The notes beneath the pieces were generated by a model. It saw only the letters and a program-made list of their open reading frames with translations. It had not been told where the DNA came from and ran no database searches. Positions 32,275 to 40,041 of a DNA stretch of 64,000 nt are shown one piece after another; position 1 is the first letter of the stretch; every line of letters begins with the position of its first letter. Origin of the DNA: Nitrospirota bacterium. GTDB lineage: Bacteria > Nitrospirota > UBA9217. The stretch lies in NCBI GenBank assembly GCA_963751455.1, contig CAVVUN010000012.1, positions 64,001 through 128,000 on the forward strand, read 5' to 3'. The translations under genes were made by a program, and so were the position numbers.

Positions 32275-32810
32275 TCAAAAGTCCAGAGGGCTTTTCGCTT
32301 CCTTCACGGTCCTGCTCGGGATGCAATGCGTGTAAATCATAGTCGTCCTGACATCCGCGTGCCCGTGGAGCGTCTGAATCGTCCGGATATCGTAGTTGGC
32401 CTGCAGCAGGTGCGTTGCATAAAGGCCGGATTTTGCGTTGGTGCGAACTGGACCAGAAAATTTCAAAGTTATTTGGACGGGCTTGAGCGCGCGTTGTATC
32501 AGGGACACTTCTAACTAACGCATGAGAATAAGTTTCTTGACGGATCAACAAAGGACAGTTTTGCCGTTTCTGTTGTGAGGCAAAGAAAAGAGATACGGCA
32601 TCCGCTGCGTGTTCCACCTGCACATCATCGGAGTTTGTCTGCAAACAGCTTGACTTGAGCAGATTTCTCACCGGGGAGCGGATATTTGGCTCGAAAGTCC
32701 AGAAAATATCGCAGCCATTTGCGATATCCGGGGCGCGAAAACAGAGGAACGTTTCGGTGTTTCAGTATGCCATCAAAGCGAGCGAGAATATCTGCTGGTA
32801 TCGTCTGCAT
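32275..32810 (-). pseudogene. intI: Integron integrase (IntI-like tyrosine recombinase) remnant with the central region deleted
   Basis: C-terminal YATHLLQANYDIRTIQTLHGHADVRTTMIYTH; N-terminal YRKWLRYFLDF and HAADAVSLFF; divergent from attI and cassette array. Confidence 0.88.
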
Positions 32811-32903: not shown

Positions 32904-33016
32904 ATGGCTTATCAGACTGCGATTATGAATAGAGAGATCGGGGGGGGTGTAGTAACACAGATTCAAATCAGTTTAGTGGACAAGCGCTTTCCGATTTAAT
33001 AAAACGGGCTACTGTT

Positions 33017-33762
33017 TTGGCATCCATAGCAGCAATCTTTTTTTTGTATGGTTTCGGTAAAACCGCCAAAGTTAATATGTTGGCGTATGTGACTCTCAGT
33101 GATTACTTGCGAGTTGCCGTTGGTTGGATTGTGCCAGCGCTCGGTCTGCCTTTTTTGGCTGGTTATTTCGGCTCAGACCTTACCATGATGATGCGTAGTT
33201 CAAATCAAGGGCATTCCGATGATATAGAGAAACTGCGTAACAAATATGAGCACGGCAGGAAGAATGTGAAATCGTTCTATTGATATTAGTGATTGTTCTA
33301 TTACTTTTTGAGTTATTTTATATGATGCATTCAAATTTCAGCATTAATTTAAATTTAATCTATCAGTTATAATACTTACTCTTCTTGGCGTTGTTATGTG
33401 GTTAATCATTTTAACCTGGCACATTAGACATAATGGATAATGTTATAAAACTCGGCCTTGAAAAAACAAAAATACTCATGTACGTCCCACTCCTTCTAAT
33501 TTTCTCATTTGGCTCCGGATTAGCCCACGGTTCGTTAACAAATAAACCAGATAGTAAAAATTGCCAGTTTGTAGCGATCAATGGGAGCAGCAACAGCATA
33601 CCGCTTCGTGGTGAGCTACTCTTCTCTTTTGATAAATACATAATTCTAAGAGAGTCTGAACATCAAGAATTAACGTTTCTTCCTTCTGACAAAGTAGTTT
33701 CAATAAGGACACCGGTTACACTTCCATCTCTTTCAACGGCACCTGCATTTGCTGCTAAGTAA
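33017..33762 (+). pseudogene. First cassette of array B: fragmented AT-rich membrane protein gene
   Basis: Two co-oriented hydrophobic ORF pieces (33017-33283, 33433-33762) between attI and attC. Confidence 0.55.
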
Positions 33763-33849
33763 AATTATACTCGACATACAATGTGTTTATGGAATAGGTG
33801 CAATTGAATCGAGTATTTGAATCTGAGAGCCGCTAATTAATTTAGCATT

Positions 33850-33904
33850 ATCCAACGATCTCGTCGAGAGAAACGCTCTCGCGTTCCTCACGCGCGCGTT
33901 TGAA
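33850..33904 (+). mobile_element. attC site
   Basis: ATCCAAC...CGT-c-GAG...CTC-ACG...GTTTGAA; right arm CCTCACGCGCGCGTT identical to the attC at 14234. Confidence 0.85.
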
Positions 33905-33922
33905 TTCGGAGAGGAGATGCCA

Positions 33923-34210
33923 ATGGATCGACTTACGACAACTATCAGACGCCCTTGGCTTGCGGGAATCATTGCAGGCACCAAAAAAATCGAATATCGA
34001 GAGATCAAGCTGTACCGGCGAGATCGCTTAGCTCAGGTGAAAGCACCTTTTGAATGACGATTAATCAATGGCATGCAGCGCCGCGCTCCTGAAGTCACTG
34101 TTCTCATCAACAAAGTGAAAAAAGATACACGCAATGGTGTCTATGAATTGCATATACGTAAAGTCATCTCGTTCATGAACTGGGATCGTTCTCGTAGTGT
34201 GCGAAGGTAA
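33923..34210 (+). pseudogene. ASCH-domain-like cassette gene with internal TGA
   Basis: MDRLTTTIRRPWLAGIIAGTKKIEYREIK...PFE*RLINGM; GxKxxExR motif; TGA at 34055. Confidence 0.7.
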
Positions 34211-34263
34211 CGCTGGCTTACAGCCATCAAATCACCTGATACCCATCCGCGTAAAAGCGCCAC

Positions 34264-34292
34264 TTGACATCGATAAACAATTTGTTTATAAT
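34264..34292 (+). promoter_or_regulatory. Consensus sigma-70 promoter with palindromic operator for higBA
   Basis: TTGACA-N17-TATAAT; ATAAACA-att-TGTTTAT overlaps spacer and -10; ATG 7 nt downstream (leaderless). Confidence 0.85.
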
Positions 34293-34298
34293 ATTTCC

Positions 34299-34586
34299 AT
34301 GATTCAGTCATTTGCTTCTTCCGAAACGGAACGCTTCTTTGCCACCGGAAAATCGCGCCGCTTGCCGCGGGATATACTGAAGCGTGCAGCGATGCGCTTG
34401 ACACAGTTGGATGGAGCCGTGCGCCTCGACGATTTGCGAAATCCGCCTTCCAACAGACTGGAAGCGTTGGCTCATGATCGTGTCGGTCAATGGAGCATTC
34501 GCATTAACGACCAGTGGCGCGTATGTTTCCGTTTTGAAAATGGCGATGCGTATGACGTTGAAATCGTTAGATTATCATTAAATTAA
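34299..34586 (+). CDS. higB: HigB-family toxin; +1 indel removes the C-terminal DYH
   Basis: MIQSF, DLRNPPSNRLEAL, WSIRINDQWRVCF; GATTATCATTAA is out of frame. Confidence 0.88.
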   Translation: MIQSFASSETERFFATGKSRRLPRDILKRAAMRLTQLDGAVRLDDLRNPPSNRLEALAHDRVGQWSIRINDQWRVCFRFENGDAYDVEIVRLSLN

Positions 34587-34599
34587 AGGAGATACAGAT

Positions 34600-34896
34600 A
34601 TGGTTAAGAATGGTTTGCCTGCAATTCATCCGGGAGAATTCCTGGCAGAAATCCTGGGAGAGATGGGTATATCTCAGGCTGAGTTCGCGCGCACTATCGG
34701 GGTATCGCCGATGCGGATTTCTCACGTAATCAAGGGTGTTCGTCCGGTAACGGCAGAACTGGCATTGTTGTTCGGTCGCGCGTTTAACCAGACGCCGCAA
34801 TACTGGCTTAATCTTCAGGCGTCTTACGATTTAAAAATCGCGAAGGCAAGTATCGGTAAGCGCCTTGCCGGTATACATGCCCTTGCGCATTCCTAA
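34600..34896 (+). CDS. higA: HigA-family antitoxin
   Basis: IHPGEFL, HTH, TPQYWLNLQ. Confidence 0.93.
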   Translation: MVKNGLPAIHPGEFLAEILGEMGISQAEFARTIGVSPMRISHVIKGVRPVTAELALLFGRAFNQTPQYWLNLQASYDLKIAKASIGKRLAGIHALAHS

Positions 34897-34924
34897 TTTC
34901 CCGTCAACCAATACCCGAGAATAA

Positions 34925-34983
34925 TTCCAACCTGCGCCTCGACAGCTACGCGCCAAAGGCGGCGCGTCAGGCGCGCATTGGCT
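34925..34983 (+). mobile_element. attC site (core GTT changed to ATT)
   Basis: TTCCAAC-ct-GCGCCT-c-GAC...GTC-AGGCGC-gc-ATTGGCT. Confidence 0.8.
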
Positions 34984-35237
34984 CCGGGGAAAATGCTCTA
35001 CGTCGGCCGGAGCCGCTGAGTCAAGTCGTTTACCAAAAGGAGGATGTGAGCATGAGATACAGTGTACTCTGTGTAATAATTTCTGTGATTGTTGGAATTG
35101 GCCTAGCTGGATGCAGCGGTGCATCGAATAATTCAAATAATAACAGCGATTCTGCCTCTTCACCATGTTTGACGGTCTGAGGCAGTGCCTTGCTAAATTA
35201 TACTGCTTCTGAAGCCTTGATTTTTTTTTAAAAAGCC

Positions 35238-35268
35238 TTGACCTGTCTATTACTTCATAGTTTATGAT
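35238..35268 (+). promoter_or_regulatory. MerR-type promoter with 19-bp spacer
   Basis: TTGACC-N19-TATGAT with dyad CTAT-tacttc-ATAG in the spacer, directly upstream of a MerR-family gene. Confidence 0.7.
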
Positions 35269-35290
35269 ACACTCCAGCTCAGGAGGTATC

Positions 35291-35842
35291 ATGTACACCA
35301 TCGGTCAACTGGCAAAGAAAATCGGTCTCTCCCGCAGCACCCTGCTCTACTACGATTCGATAGGCCTCTTTTCTCCCTCTGGAAGGAGTAATTCCAATTA
35401 TCGTACATACACCGAAGAGGACCGCGACCGTCTTGAGCAGATCTGCACCTACCGCCGGGCCAGCCTGTCCCTGAACGATATAGGCCGGATCATAAAAACA
35501 AGAAACAAACGGAGCGTTGTTCCGCTTCTCGAAAAGCGGCTTGATGCACTGAACAGGGAAATCCGCGCTCTGCGCAACCAGCAACATTTCATTGTAAAGC
35601 TTTTGAAGAACGATCTCGCGCTTTCAAAGATCAGGGTCATGGACAGGGAGAGCTGGATCAAGCTGCTGGATAGGGCCGGTCTGGACGAGGCGGCCAGGGA
35701 CAAGTGGCATGCAGAATTCGAGATGCTTGCTCCCGACGCGCATCAGGATTTTCTCGAATCCCTCGGCATTCCAGGCAAGGAAATCACACTTATCAGGAGG
35801 TATTCAAGGCACGGACGAAAGACCGAGTCAGCCGGGCGCTAA
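35291..35842 (+). CDS. MerR-family transcriptional regulator
   Basis: MYTIGQLAK, STLLYYDSIGL, NYRTY; RBS AGGAGG. Confidence 0.93.
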   Translation: MYTIGQLAKKIGLSRSTLLYYDSIGLFSPSGRSNSNYRTYTEEDRDRLEQICTYRRASLSLNDIGRIIKTRNKRSVVPLLEKRLDALNREIRALRNQQHFIVKLLKNDLALSKIRVMDRESWIKLLDRAGLDEAARDKWHAEFEMLAPDAHQDFLESLGIPGKEITLIRRYSRHGRKTESAGR

Positions 35843-35891
35843 TGTGCGGCAAAGACTTTTGAATGACGTTTTTAACAGAAGGAGGATGAAG

Positions 35892-36650
35892 GTGAAAGAC
35901 AGGATCATGCTGGGATTATGGAAGTACATGCTGAATGTCCCTTCTTTTATGATGGACATGAAGAAGCAGATTGCCCGTGAAAAAATGAGATATGAAGCAG
36001 CTGTGGGTTTTATGACCGAGGACCACCGTCGTGTGCATCATTTCGTTGTCAGGGAACTTCCCGATGCCGGCAAACCCTTGTCCCCTGAATTAATAGCGGA
36101 CAAACTGGGCCTGCCCTATAATCGGGTCGCGTTCGTTCTTAATGATCTCGAAAAGCATATGACCTTTCTGTTCAGGAATAAGAATGGAGCAGTAACGTGG
36201 GCATACCCGGTAACGGTCGACAAAACGCCCCATCACCTCACATTCAGTTCCGGCCAACAGGTGCACGCGGCCTGAGCAGTGGACGCATTTGCCACGCCCT
36301 TCGTGCAAGGGCGATTACGGAACGAGCATATTACAGTCACGGTCCGCACTGAGTGCGCCCACTGTAAAACGCCGATGGAGCTGACTATCGACAGTGATCT
36401 CAATTGCACTATCAAGGAAAATGGGTGCGAGCCGATGGTCTTTATGCCGAATGTGGACCTCTTGAACCTTCAAGACGAGAGCATCATCAACGCATTCTGA
36501 AAAGAGACGGTCTTCTTCCGGTCGGAAGAACACGCACGAGAGCACCGAAAAAGGACACACCGGATACGAGGGGTTTATTTGACTGCGGAACAGATGAAGG
36601 AGGGCACGAAGATAATCCAGAGCGTGCTTTTTGGATTTCCTGATACATGA
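35892..36650 (+). CDS. MerB-like organomercurial lyase homolog with two in-frame TGA codons (probable selenocysteines)
   Basis: One frame through TGA 36273 (HAA-U-AVD, cf. MerB WCALD) and TGA 36498 (AF-U-KETVFFRSEE, cf. MerB FCxxVxFFxS); hairpins follow both. Confidence 0.8.
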
Positions 36651-36786
36651 TGTTTATCAACTTGAAAAAAGCAATGTGGATAGTCACCTGAACTTGAGGC
36701 CGGTGAAAATAGAATTCAATACAGTTGCCGATCCGGAATATGCAGTGTTTTCAGAATGGCTAAGGCCGTTTAAGTGGACCCCTCTG

Positions 36787-37710
36787 TCAAGACAATAAAG
36801 GGGTGAGATTAAGATGGTAACCAACCAAGCCGCAGCTGCATGGCGCTGCCCCGGTTTCTACCTCTCCCTGAGGTTCTTTTCGCTCTTTGAATTTATCCAC
36901 AATCCTTGCTCCACCGCCGTTCGCTGTTTGATAGATCACATCCGGTGTGCTGTAGTCCAATGATTGATGTGTTCTTTCCGTGTTGTAGAACATAAAGTAT
37001 TTCGTCAGCCCCAGTTGCGCTTCAGGTACTGTGGCGTACCCTTTTAAATATACGTCTTCGTGCTTTACGCTCCGCCATAGCCGTTCCACGAAGATATTGT
37101 CCAATGCACGGCCGCGGCCGTCCATGCTGATGTTAATGCAGTGCGCCTTGAGCACGCCGGTGAAGGCCTCAGAGGTGAACTGGCAGCCCTGATCGGTGTT
37201 GAAGATCTCGGGGATGCCGTATGTCTGTAATGCCTGTTCCAGGCAGTCCACGCAGAAGCTGCTATCGAGCGTGTTTGATAATCGCCATGCCAGCACTTTG
37301 CGTGAGTACCAGTCGATCACGGCCACCAGGTACACAAATCCCCGCGCCAGGCGGATGTAGGTGATGTCAGTGCTCCATACCTGATTGGGTCGTGTCACCG
37401 ATACGCCTCTGAGCAGATATGGATAAACCATGTGCTGCGGGCTGGGGCGGCTGGTGTTCGGTCCCGGTGCCATGCCTGCCAGCCCCAGAATGCCCATTAG
37501 CCGCTGTATCCGTTTTCGGTTGACCTGATGCCCTATGCCGCACAAGTACACGGTTATTTTGCGGCTGCCGTAGAACGGATGCCGGGTGTATTCAGCGTCG
37601 ATCTCACTCAGCAGGGTCAATTCCAGCTCGTCCGGGTCGGCAGTCAGATGCGGCGCATAGAAAGTGGACCGGTTGACACCTGCCAGTTCGCATTGTTTGG
37701 TTAGCGCCAA
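36787..37710 (-). CDS. IS3-family transposase OrfB (DDE)
   Basis: WSTDITY, FNTDQG, DNIFVERLWRSVK. Confidence 0.95.
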   Translation of the reverse strand: MALTKQCELAGVNRSTFYAPHLTADPDELELTLLSEIDAEYTRHPFYGSRKITVYLCGIGHQVNRKRIQRLMGILGLAGMAPGPNTSRPSPQHMVYPYLLRGVSVTRPNQVWSTDITYIRLARGFVYLVAVIDWYSRKVLAWRLSNTLDSSFCVDCLEQALQTYGIPEIFNTDQGCQFTSEAFTGVLKAHCINISMDGRGRALDNIFVERLWRSVKHEDVYLKGYATVPEAQLGLTKYFMFYNTERTHQSLDYSTPDVIYQTANGGGARIVDKFKERKEPQGEVETGAAPCSCGLVGYHLNLTPLLS

Positions 37711-37745
37711 AGGGTTTTTGGTATCTACCCAGTGCCGCCGGTCCG

Positions 37746-38039
37746 CTATAGGCTGATCCCGGACTTTTTTTTAAGCCAGTCCAGTTCCATCTTCAGCCGT
37801 CCGATCTCGGAGTAGAGCCGCTCCGAACTGGCAGCAGGATCTACCGGCGCGGGACCGCGCGTAGTGTCAAATATGCCCGCAGCCTGATCTTGCAAAACCT
37901 TTTTCCACTGCCCCACTTGCGTTGGATGTACGCCGAACGCCTGGGCAATTTCGGTTACTGTCTTGACACCTCGGATCGCCTCAAGCGCGACCTTGGCTTT
38001 GAACTGACTGCTGAAATTTTTGCGCTTTTTTTCGCTCAA
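37746..38039 (-). CDS. IS3-family transposase OrfA
   Basis: FKAKVALEA, HTH, LKKKS with a poly-A+G -1 frameshift motif. Confidence 0.93.
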   Translation of the reverse strand: MSEKKRKNFSSQFKAKVALEAIRGVKTVTEIAQAFGVHPTQVGQWKKVLQDQAAGIFDTTRGPAPVDPAASSERLYSEIGRLKMELDWLKKKSGISL

Positions 38040-38365
38040 AACCTGCTCCTTTTTAACGGCAGGTTACCATCTTAAACTATTGTCCGAAAATTGGGGTCCA
38101 CTATAGTTTTAAAGTCAATTTTTAGAGCAAAGAACTATAAAACCAAAGTCATCTTCGACATACAAAAGTGGTTTGAAACAGATGATAGAAGTAGAGTGTG
38201 AAAATCATTTTATCAACGTTGAGAGAACAAGGGATCACTCATCAAGTAGTCGATCTCAAGAATTACTGATGTGAAACCGAAACGTCGAAGTAAATCGAAG
38301 TAAGTCCTTGATTAAAAGGGCATCTCGTTGTAAAATCATTATAAACGTTGATGGAGGTGTTCCTA

Positions 38366-38596
38366 ATGCCAATGAAAGTAAAAGAAATCGAAGAAGAGGC
38401 ACTTCGGCTTAGTTCGCATGAGCGAGCCCTGCTTGTCGAACATCTTATCGGAAGTTTGGAGCCCGATGAAGATCCTGACGCTGAGCGTGCTTGGATTAAG
38501 GAAGCCGAGCGCCGCTACCAGGACTACAAGGCAGGAAAAATGAAAACGAGACCATCTGAACAGGTTTTCAAAGAGGCCCGCGCAAAATTGAAATGA
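38366..38596 (+). CDS. Putative addiction-module antitoxin
   Basis: LSSHERALL, AWIKEAERR; overlaps the toxin start. Confidence 0.85.
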   Translation: MPMKVKEIEEEALRLSSHERALLVEHLIGSLEPDEDPDAERAWIKEAERRYQDYKAGKMKTRPSEQVFKEARAKLK

Positions 38597-38895
38597 TGCC
38601 GATTGACTTCCTTCCCGAGGCAGAGCAGGAAATGATCGAGGCTGCGCTTTACTATCAGTCTCTATCATCAGGCCTAGGAGATGACTATCTCGACGAGGTC
38701 GAACGCGCTGTTCGCTCCATAACATCCTCCCCGCAAACATGGCCAATTCTTGAAGGCAATTTGAGAAGACGGCTTATCAAAAGATTCCCCTTCGCTGTTT
38801 TATACAGGATTGAGCAGGATAAAATTCTGATGGTCGCTGTTGCCCATCTGAGAAAAAAGCCAGGATACTGGAAAAATAGAATCCGTACAAAGTAA
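38593..38895 (+). CDS. RelE/ParE-family toxin
   Basis: FLPEAEQE, RFPFAVLY, VAVAHLRKKPGYW. Confidence 0.9.
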   Translation: MMPIDFLPEAEQEMIEAALYYQSLSSGLGDDYLDEVERAVRSITSSPQTWPILEGNLRRRLIKRFPFAVLYRIEQDKILMVAVAHLRKKPGYWKNRIRTK

Positions 38896-38905
38896 ATACC
38901 CGAGA

Positions 38906-38966
38906 TTCCAACCTGCGCCTCCACAGCGACGCGCCATAAGGCGGCGCGTGACCCGCATCGTTATCG
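38906..38966 (+). mobile_element. attC site
   Basis: TTCCAACCTGCGCCTC...ACGCGCC/GGCGCGT...GTTATCG; left arm nearly identical to 34925. Confidence 0.75.
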
Positions 38967-39010
38967 CGTGAGACGGGCATCGGTGCGAGGAGCTTCGCTG
39001 GAGGAAAACC

Positions 39011-39382
39011 ATGTCAAAGACTAAACCAACAACTATTGCCGAATACATAAGCGCCGCTCCAAAAGAAGCGCAAAAGAACCTGCGCGAGCTGTATACAGTT
39101 CTCAAGAAAGTTGCACCGGGAGCTACGGAAGGTATGAAATGGGGATCGCCCGTATTTGAAGAGAAGCGAATTCTTTTCGCATTTGCCGCATTCAAATCGC
39201 ATCTCAATTTCATGCCAACCCCTTCGGCGATGAGGCCGTTCAAAAAGGAGTTGGCAAAATACACGATTGGCAAGGGTTCAATTCAATTCCCCTACGACAA
39301 ACGGCTGCCAAAGGCGCTCATACGCAAAATCGCTGCACTTCGCGTCAAGGAACTCAGAGAAAAGGATGTTAGATGGATGTAA
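39011..39382 (+). CDS. DUF1801/YdhG-like protein
   Basis: TIAEYI, APGATEGMKWGSP, GSIQFPYDK.LP. Confidence 0.85.
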   Translation: MSKTKPTTIAEYISAAPKEAQKNLRELYTVLKKVAPGATEGMKWGSPVFEEKRILFAFAAFKSHLNFMPTPSAMRPFKKELAKYTIGKGSIQFPYDKRLPKALIRKIAALRVKELREKDVRWM

Positions 39383-39417
39383 AGGCAAGCCGAGCTTTGC
39401 GAGAATTGCGGATGCGC

Positions 39418-39481
39418 ATCCAACATCACGCCCACCGCACGCCTCGCGGCCGGCGGACGCGGCTGAACTCGTTCGTTGCTG
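39418..39481 (+). mobile_element. Degenerate attC site
   Basis: ATCCAAC...GCTGAACTCGTTCGTTGCTG; arms pair poorly. Confidence 0.4.
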
Positions 39482-39592
39482 CCCGTAGATAGAGATTCTG
39501 GAAGTGTCCCTCTTGACAGCTCTATCGTGGATCATCTATCCTTAGACTAAGCCTTTTTTCTACTCCCCTACGACCTGGCTGCAAAAAAACAG

Positions 39593-39997
39593 ATGAAGGA
39601 TCTCTTCCACAAAATAGCGCACAAAACATCTGAACTGGTAGGCTCGCCTGCGGCCTTCATAATCGCGGCTGCTGTCATTGTTGCCTGGGCGATATCAGGA
39701 CCAGTCTTCAGGTTCTCCGACACCTGGCAGCTCGTCATCAATACCGGTACTACGATCGTTACTTTCCTGATGGTATTCCTGATTCAGAACACACAGAACC
39801 GCGACGCCAAAGTCATACAGCTCAAGCTCGACGAGCTTATCCGGGCGGGGAAAAAGACCCGAAACAGGCTGGTAGACCTCGAAGACCTTTCAGAAGAGGA
39901 GATCAGGGATATGGAGCTGGAATTTCAGCGTCTGCGCAAGCAGGCCAAGCCCGGGCGAATGCAACAAACCGAAAAAAATAATAAACGATCATCATAA
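39593..39997 (+). CDS. Low-affinity iron permease-family protein
   Basis: FSDTWQLVINTGTTIVTFLMVFLIQNTQNRD, KLDELI. Confidence 0.9.
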   Translation: MKDLFHKIAHKTSELVGSPAAFIIAAAVIVAWAISGPVFRFSDTWQLVINTGTTIVTFLMVFLIQNTQNRDAKVIQLKLDELIRAGKKTRNRLVDLEDLSEEEIRDMELEFQRLRKQAKPGRMQQTEKNNKRSS

Positions 39998-40041
39998 TCG
40001 GGTCCTTTTTCATTCCGGAACACGCCTTGCCTTCAACCACC

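Follow-up and report, generated by a model that had tools for sequence, protein, structure and literature searches.

A predicted two-selenocysteine branch of the MerB superfamily behind a MerR-type regulator in a Nitrospirota bacterium

The locus

The window, a stretch of 64,000 nucleotides from a Nitrospirota bacterium, contained a MerB-fold gene of 252 codons with two in-frame UGA codons (35892..36650, plus strand), assigned by a Pfam MerB match and by the predicted fold of its product. The frame starts with GTG at 35892, preceded by AGGAGG at 35880-35885, and terminates with TGA at 36648-36650. The triplets TGA 36273-36275 and TGA 36498-36500 were the only internal stops, thus the single frame of about 252 codons, which a preliminary description of this DNA had seen split at these two triplets, was borne out. 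The first UGA (36273..36275, plus strand), in the context HAA-U-AVD, is predicted to encode Sec128 and the second (36498..36500, plus strand), in the context AF-U-KETVFFRS, Sec203. The database record of the window's own product is a 127-aa fragment. A public groundwater contig, which may be the source sample, showed 99% identity across the whole stretch with 11 differing letters in total. None of its 9 tabulated substitutions touched either TGA; a TGC or TGT in their place, named beforehand as an outcome against selenocysteine, was not found.

A gene for a MerR-family transcriptional regulator of 183 aa with a single cysteine, C52, was located upstream (35291..35842, plus strand; Pfam MerR_1, E 6e-15). 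It is preceded by a MerR-type promoter/operator (35238..35268, plus strand), recognised by its sequence and conserved upstream of relatives, in which the -35 element TTGACC (35238-35243) and the -10 element TATGAT (35263-35268) are separated by a 19-bp spacer with a short CTAT-n6-ATAG dyad. The 19-bp spacer is described as a hallmark of the MerR family in excerpts of PMC11049809 and PMC1526738. A generic promoter scan missed the site because its allowed spacers were 16-18 nt. A degenerate pattern built from 8 promoters matched 18 of the 111 distinct loci of the family, including 11 outside the building set, and had a single site in the host genome. The regulator scored far below the cut-offs for MerR, CueR, ZntR and CadR, and its Atlas assignment was 'MerR family', nothing finer. 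Mercury-sensing MerR proteins have three metal-binding cysteines; an assignment to this group was rejected (TIGR02051, 42.8 of 150.85 bits; one cysteine only). The MerR-type gene together with the 19-bp-spacer promoter suggests that the two genes form a small inducible unit, the regulator gene being the probable first gene of a two-gene operon. Judged by sequence, a MerR-type regulator without the mercury cysteines behind a conserved 19-bp-spacer promoter is new here.

Neighbors were surveyed at 111 loci, 59 of which extend for 700 bases or more in both directions. Found repeatedly were MarR-like (10), MerR-like (9, adjoining the two-UGA gene by clustering), thioesterase (7), AraC-like (5), MFS (5) and hydrolase (5) genes. 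mer genes were not seen among the neighbors (63 proteins; 87 at a strict E-value; 470 clustered). An IS3-like element lies directly downstream of the two-UGA gene in the window. The segments 36787-38039 (minus), 34308-34896 (plus), 38348-38895 (plus) and 32275-32810 (minus) belong to a variable, mobile-looking region that includes HigBA and ParE-type toxin-antitoxin pairs and short ORFs which we take to be integrase-like fragments.

Relation to MerB

The read-through product matched Pfam MerB (PF03243) with 61.7 bits against a cut-off of 27. In the alignment to MerB, U128 corresponded to Cys96, D131 to Asp99, C155 to Cys117 and U203 to Cys159, as had been proposed from the two sequence contexts for Cys96-Asp99 and Cys159; Cys160 of MerB had no counterpart in this protein. 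Asp131 (36282..36284, plus strand), at the position of the catalytic Asp99, was invariant in 26 of 26 and 86 of 86 loci of the two family sets described below. The C155-x-x-C158 motif (36354..36365, plus strand), with C155 at the place of the structural Cys117, was invariant in the family alignment. An AlphaFold model from 26 family members had a pLDDT of 88.8. Foldseek searches with this predicted model returned MerB 3F0O at E 2e-12 and the first non-MerB match at E 0.21. Superposition of the predicted model gave Z 22.8 with an rmsd of 2.6 over 206 residues for MerB2 and Z of about 20 for MerB, the best unrelated fold reaching Z 10.5. As a canonical MerB equivalog the protein was rejected, with scores below the cut-offs (NF033555, 47 of 200 bits; NF009710, 56.3 of 193 bits). 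The canonical residue set Cys96/Asp99/Cys159 was not present as such: the Asp is kept, both Cys codons are UGA.

Selenocysteine decoding

A lack of selenocysteine machinery, which would have spoken against the proposal, was not observed: the host genome encodes selA adjoining selB, as well as selD and two tRNA-Sec genes. The host selD carries one in-frame TGA; its matches fall into two overlapping frames, perhaps through a frameshift. Among the 28 carriers, selA was found in 27 and selB in 25. Since selA is widespread in these lineages in any case (267 of 301 genomes of the Anaerolineae class, 55 of 64 genomes of the host's family), its co-occurrence with the gene discriminates little; in one of the 14 carriers within the 301-genome class no selA was seen.

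Each UGA is followed by a SECIS-like hairpin. Hairpin 1 (36295..36313, plus strand) has the 5-nt loop CGUGC, a distance of 26 nt to the UGA and a folding energy of -11.0 kcal/mol; hairpin 2 (36513..36530, plus strand) has the 4-nt loop GGUC, a distance of 19 nt and -10.9 kcal/mol. GGUC is also the loop of the E. coli fdhF SECIS. Loop, spacing and energy of both hairpins agree with the bSECIS values in the available part of PMC13188914 (loop of 3-9 nt with a G within the first two positions, spacing of 16-37 nt, energy of -7.5 kcal/mol or lower). Of the 99,679 TGAs on the plus strand of the host genome, 267 (0.27%) are followed by a 7-bp hairpin of such kind, and both sites here qualify. Within the window alone the folding energies were unexceptional (z -0.60 and -0.41), shuffles of synonymous codons gave no significance (p 0.12 and 0.17), and Rfam had no match within 33000-40000. 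As single-sequence folding is not exceptional, the real support for the hairpins comes from family conservation.

Across 27 genes, the same-codon rate among synonymous pairs was about 1.0 in both stems versus 0.43 elsewhere (p 1e-7), a value to be read with the dependence of alignment columns in mind and with two columns outside the stems that were also high. Hairpin 1, with its near-fixed synonymous codons, had five inner pairs intact in 102 of 102 distinct sequences. In hairpin 2, six inner pairs were always paired in 104 distinct sequences. Its closing pair was U-A in 94, C-G in 8, among them the window, and U-G in 2 sequences, and a second variable pair was U-A in 100 and C-G in 4, a compensatory swap. 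The swap from U-A to C-G in the window alters an amino acid from Trp to Arg. Hairpin 2 overlaps the FFxS motif common to Cys-type MerBs; 16 control genes of the Cys type showed weaker folds at this site (0 to -7.1 kcal/mol). The earlier observation of a hairpin behind each TGA was thereby extended to conserved pairs throughout the family. We consider it nearly certain that SelB reads each hairpin and inserts selenocysteine at both UGAs, although this remains a prediction. Elsewhere in the host genome, a frame of 1,130 codons that encodes ankyrin-like repeats and a GC-U-G motif (G000:C2:437438-440830, minus strand) is followed by a GGUCA-loop hairpin much like hairpin 2 and is a candidate unrecognised selenoprotein.

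Conservation among relatives

TGA at both sites and no further in-frame stop were found in 26 of 28 GTDB loci with 44-79% identity, including Nitrospirota, Thermodesulfobacteriota, Chloroflexota and Myxococcota. The two exceptions were a contig that ends after site 1 and a frameshifted gene with both TGAs kept. All 86 further loci (the best 80 of 458 metagenome matches and 6 own-family loci, with 3 repeating earlier genomes) had TGA/TGA, and Asp at position +3 in every case. Two in-frame TGAs were likewise present in 14 of 14 carriers among the 301 genomes of the Anaerolineae class. In protein databases the family is truncated: the sequences of 74 of 118 homologues stop immediately ahead of site 1. 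More distant proteins were aligned in 155 rows, with seven rows of a single long repeat protein set aside. In 95 rows the sequence stops at site 1, 8 rows carry Cys there and stop at site 2, and 6 rows have Cys at site 2 behind a Gly or Ser at site 1; a Cys/Cys family member was not among these rows. The possible objection that homologues lack Cys at these positions does not hold, as MerB has Cys96 and Cys159 at both.

Sec-less members (P0120, P0127, P0128, P0135, P0166, P0168, P0177, P0017) have mostly Gly, Ser, Cys, Arg or Leu at the Sec sites. These residues have codons that differ from TGA by a single base, a hint of descent from UGA, and in the tree the Sec-less variants nest within the two-UGA family. 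Viral contigs searched contained no relative; the plasmid search yielded only distant Cys-type MerB and no record covering at least 80% of the query. No RNA data set was listed as containing the gene, a result with no bearing on its expression. In L026 and L118 the two-UGA gene is accompanied by a further copy or fragment right next to it. Taken together, the selenocysteine machinery, the family-wide UGA/UGA, the conserved hairpins and the predicted fold strongly support the two-selenocysteine MerB-fold protein of the preliminary description.

Placement among MerB-like proteins

The two-UGA family formed one clade (97/99; 100/98) apart from a SaoL-like row and from Cys-type MerBs; in one tree it branched beside R830b-type MerB (94/91, unstarred). 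SaoL, a component of a nine-gene operon with Cys99, Asp102 and Sec162 (Haft and Gwadz, bioRxiv 10.1101/2022.07.06.499078, available part), had been brought up as a known MerB-related selenoprotein. The relationship as a MerB-like selenoprotein stood, an identity with SaoL did not: the protein scored 38.9 of 140 bits with NF040728, lay in a separate clade, and lacked the CU motif and the SAO operon. Site 2 reads F-U-K, and UGA, not Cys, occupies the 96 position. The flanks are the MerR-like gene and the IS element in place of an SAO neighborhood, and SaoC and SaoB were not found in the host genome in searches run without a positive control. An AU test did not reject the family and SaoL as one clade (p 0.064, one SaoL-like row).

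When 29 genomes were searched with Pfam, a second MerB-like subfamily with two in-frame TGAs was revealed in the host genome and six others. Its motifs are WF(G/A)Q-U-(G/A)FE and U-S(T/R)xxxFRSEE, with Glu at the Asp99 position, and the GGUC hairpin after site 2 is present in most of its copies. It shares 22% identity with the window's protein, is below all NCBIfam cut-offs and forms a separate clade (100/100); a single clade of both was not rejected by the AU test (p 0.137). Given an identity of only 22%, MerB sites with two Sec may have more than one origin. The existence of this second, distant two-UGA subfamily, read from sequence, is the other new observation here. The host copy (L169:6276-7100 region; G000:C6, ~115300-116060, minus strand) is frameshifted soon after the second TGA, as a pseudogene or an assembly error, and follows an ORF whose C-terminal motif is Cys-rich and Fe-S-like. 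The copies in L140-L143, L145, L167 and L168 are apparently intact, L144 contains runs of N. A Cys/Cys MerB-like family with an N-terminal extension and ~26% identity occurs in several genomes of the host's family (L043-L051, L054).

The protein passed the cut-off of no model in NCBIfam 20.0. In the accessible part of PMC13188914, Table 1 (119 families, 2026) has SaoL, with one Sec in a CU motif, as its sole MerB-related entry, and the portion of PMC9312934 at hand has the same SaoL entry. The term 'MerB' was absent from the deep-Sep and BSepDB main texts and one BSepDB supplement. In the literature searched, with the families of Haft and Tolstoy 2025 covered through Table 1 of PMC13188914, no report of a two-Sec MerB was found. 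The gene thus apparently represents an uncatalogued two-selenocysteine branch of the MerB superfamily, with a function that we infer.

Predicted function

In MerB, Cys96 and Cys159 bind R-Hg and Asp99 protonates the carbon, and catalysis needs all three residues (PMC10114901, partial text). With the MerB geometry, two selenolates and an invariant Asp, organometal protonolysis is the best reading of the conserved site. With somewhat better than even confidence we predict a two-selenocysteine organometal lyase, whose gene is probably switched on by the upstream MerR-type regulator. Sec128 and then Sec203 would bind the metal of an R-metal cation, e.g., methylmercury; the two-selenolate grip would weaken the carbon-metal bond, Asp131 would protonate the carbon, and R-H would be released. 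Since MerA is missing, the metal ion would have to be handed to cellular thiols, sulfide or a low-potential reductant, which is the least supported step. Selenolates would capture a trace substrate more strongly than thiolates. A very tight Hg-Se binding could block product release and counts against a lyase. In oxygen-free sediments and groundwater the product likely serves as an inducible enzyme of organometal cleavage.

A possible reductase partner is a dihydrolipoyl-dehydrogenase/mycothione-reductase-like flavoprotein of the host with the redox motif C-x4-U (GGTCLNVG-U; L170:2324-3796, minus strand; G000:C15:1643820-1645328). Its gene has a hairpin downstream and scored 575.6 bits against the NF004947 cut-off of 592. 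Similar one-TGA flavoprotein matches occur in G002, G023 and G027, and no such family was seen in the available rows of Table 1 of PMC13188914.

The host also encodes hgcA (NVWCAAGK motif) with an hgcB-like ferredoxin (G000:C15:162185-163560). Of 29 carrier genomes, many of which are incomplete MAGs, none had MerA over the cut-off and 10 had hgcA over it. Within the Anaerolineae class of L021 (301 genomes), hgcA was present in 5 of 14 carriers versus 14 of 287 non-carriers (Fisher p 0.0008), a comparison confounded by kinship and genome size, which were uncontrolled. In the host's family, in which 52 of 64 genomes had hgcA over the cut-off, an enrichment was absent (4 of 7 carriers versus 48 of 57, p 0.12). 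The hgcA of the host and its enrichment among carriers of one class speak for the lyase. The missing MerA and mer neighbors, the varied upstream regulators, the one-Cys MerR, the unenriched hgcA in the family and its presence in only 10 of 29 carriers argue against it.

The least unlikely of the alternatives is a real two-Sec protein with a non-mercury substrate. Here the selenol pair would serve as a redox or nucleophilic center of a general inducible detoxification gene, by diselenide cycling or by attack on an organic electrophile or metalloid compound. Upstream regulators of the MarR, AraC and Cys-poor MerR types, the recurrence of thioesterase, hydrolase and efflux genes, the lack of a mer context and of MerA, the Glu in place of Asp in the second subfamily, and the persistence of members whose Sec sites are occupied by G, S or other residues are all consistent with such a role. 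It fits less well with the Asp at the Asp99 position, invariant alongside both Sec sites, with the predicted model, for which MerB structures alone stand clear of other folds, and with the hgcA enrichment in one class.

Also unlikely, and ranked behind the non-mercury role, is that the protein traps organomercury or soft metal ions with high affinity and largely stoichiometrically, the metal being bound by both selenolates, perhaps with a single cleavage and no turnover. No MerA is present to accept a product; the accepted way of release is by channelling from MerB to MerA, and the occurrence of MerB without MerA is called an open problem (PMC8261052, in excerpt). Chemical selenium-mediated demethylation, moreover, ends in HgSe (PMC10114901, partial text). 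Yet a trap would hardly explain the conserved Asp and the whole enzyme fold, and two Sec per ion would be costly. About half of the known merB genomes also lack MerA (PMC8261052, in excerpt), hence the absence of MerA is not decisive.

That the UGAs are true stops of a pseudogene or split gene, or Trp codons under another genetic code, is highly improbable: one relative (L035) is frameshifted, but more than 100 divergent loci retain both UGAs, the hairpins and an open frame; TGA is an ordinary stop in the host, terminating 833 of 2,156 ORFs of at least 300 aa; and the remaining Trp residues are not TGA-coded, as the two sites are the only in-frame TGAs. The W/W at both sites in 34 of 118 database homologues came in all cases from contigs below 3 kb and probably reflects gene-caller artefacts with code 4; a comparison of these proteins with the nucleotide loci of the family gave no match.

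With the organometal lyase as preferred reading, we tentatively suggest, at clearly less than even confidence, that anaerobes possess a hidden, inducible, MerA-independent two-selenolate enzyme for methylmercury cleavage, even in hgcAB methylators like this host and perhaps of more than one origin. The level of methylmercury is the balance of methylation minus demethylation, and mer-independent anaerobic mechanisms are described as poorly resolved (PMC10114901, partial text). If the suggestion is true, a gene for anaerobic methylmercury degradation has been overlooked by merB surveys, which miss two-UGA genes because these are annotated as fragments. In a survey of 84,032 bacterial genomes, hgcAB occurred in none of the genomes with MerB but without MerA (PMC8261052, in excerpt). 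In this host, hgcAB occurs together with a two-UGA MerB homologue, and MerA is not seen above the cut-off. The protein would be a concrete enzyme candidate and would represent a naturally occurring bis-selenolate form of a site for carbon-metal cleavage that has been studied in depth.

Comparison with known systems

With MerB (PF03243; 3F0O, 3F2G, 1S6L; MerB2 5C17) the protein shares the predicted fold with its winged-helix N-terminal part, and the catalytic positions 96, 99 and 159 as well as the Cys117 position are occupied. It differs from MerB in the UGA (Sec) at both catalytic Cys positions, the missing Cys160, an identity of ~20%, an extra N-terminal segment and the CxxC at 155-158, and from canonical MerB in the absence of a mer operon or MerA. 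It resembles SaoL (NF040728) as a MerB homologue from anaerobes that has kept the Asp and has Sec where MerB has Cys159; SaoL, however, has a single Sec in its CU motif, Cys at the 96 position and a nine-gene operon, whereas two Sec are predicted here. Two Sec are also found in catalogued double selenoproteins such as MbdU, MduS and the UxxU metal-binding protein, none of which is MerB-related in the accessible part of Table 1 of PMC13188914. Unlike in those proteins, the Sec pair is 75 residues apart, each Sec has its own hairpin, and both are predicted to meet in one active site.
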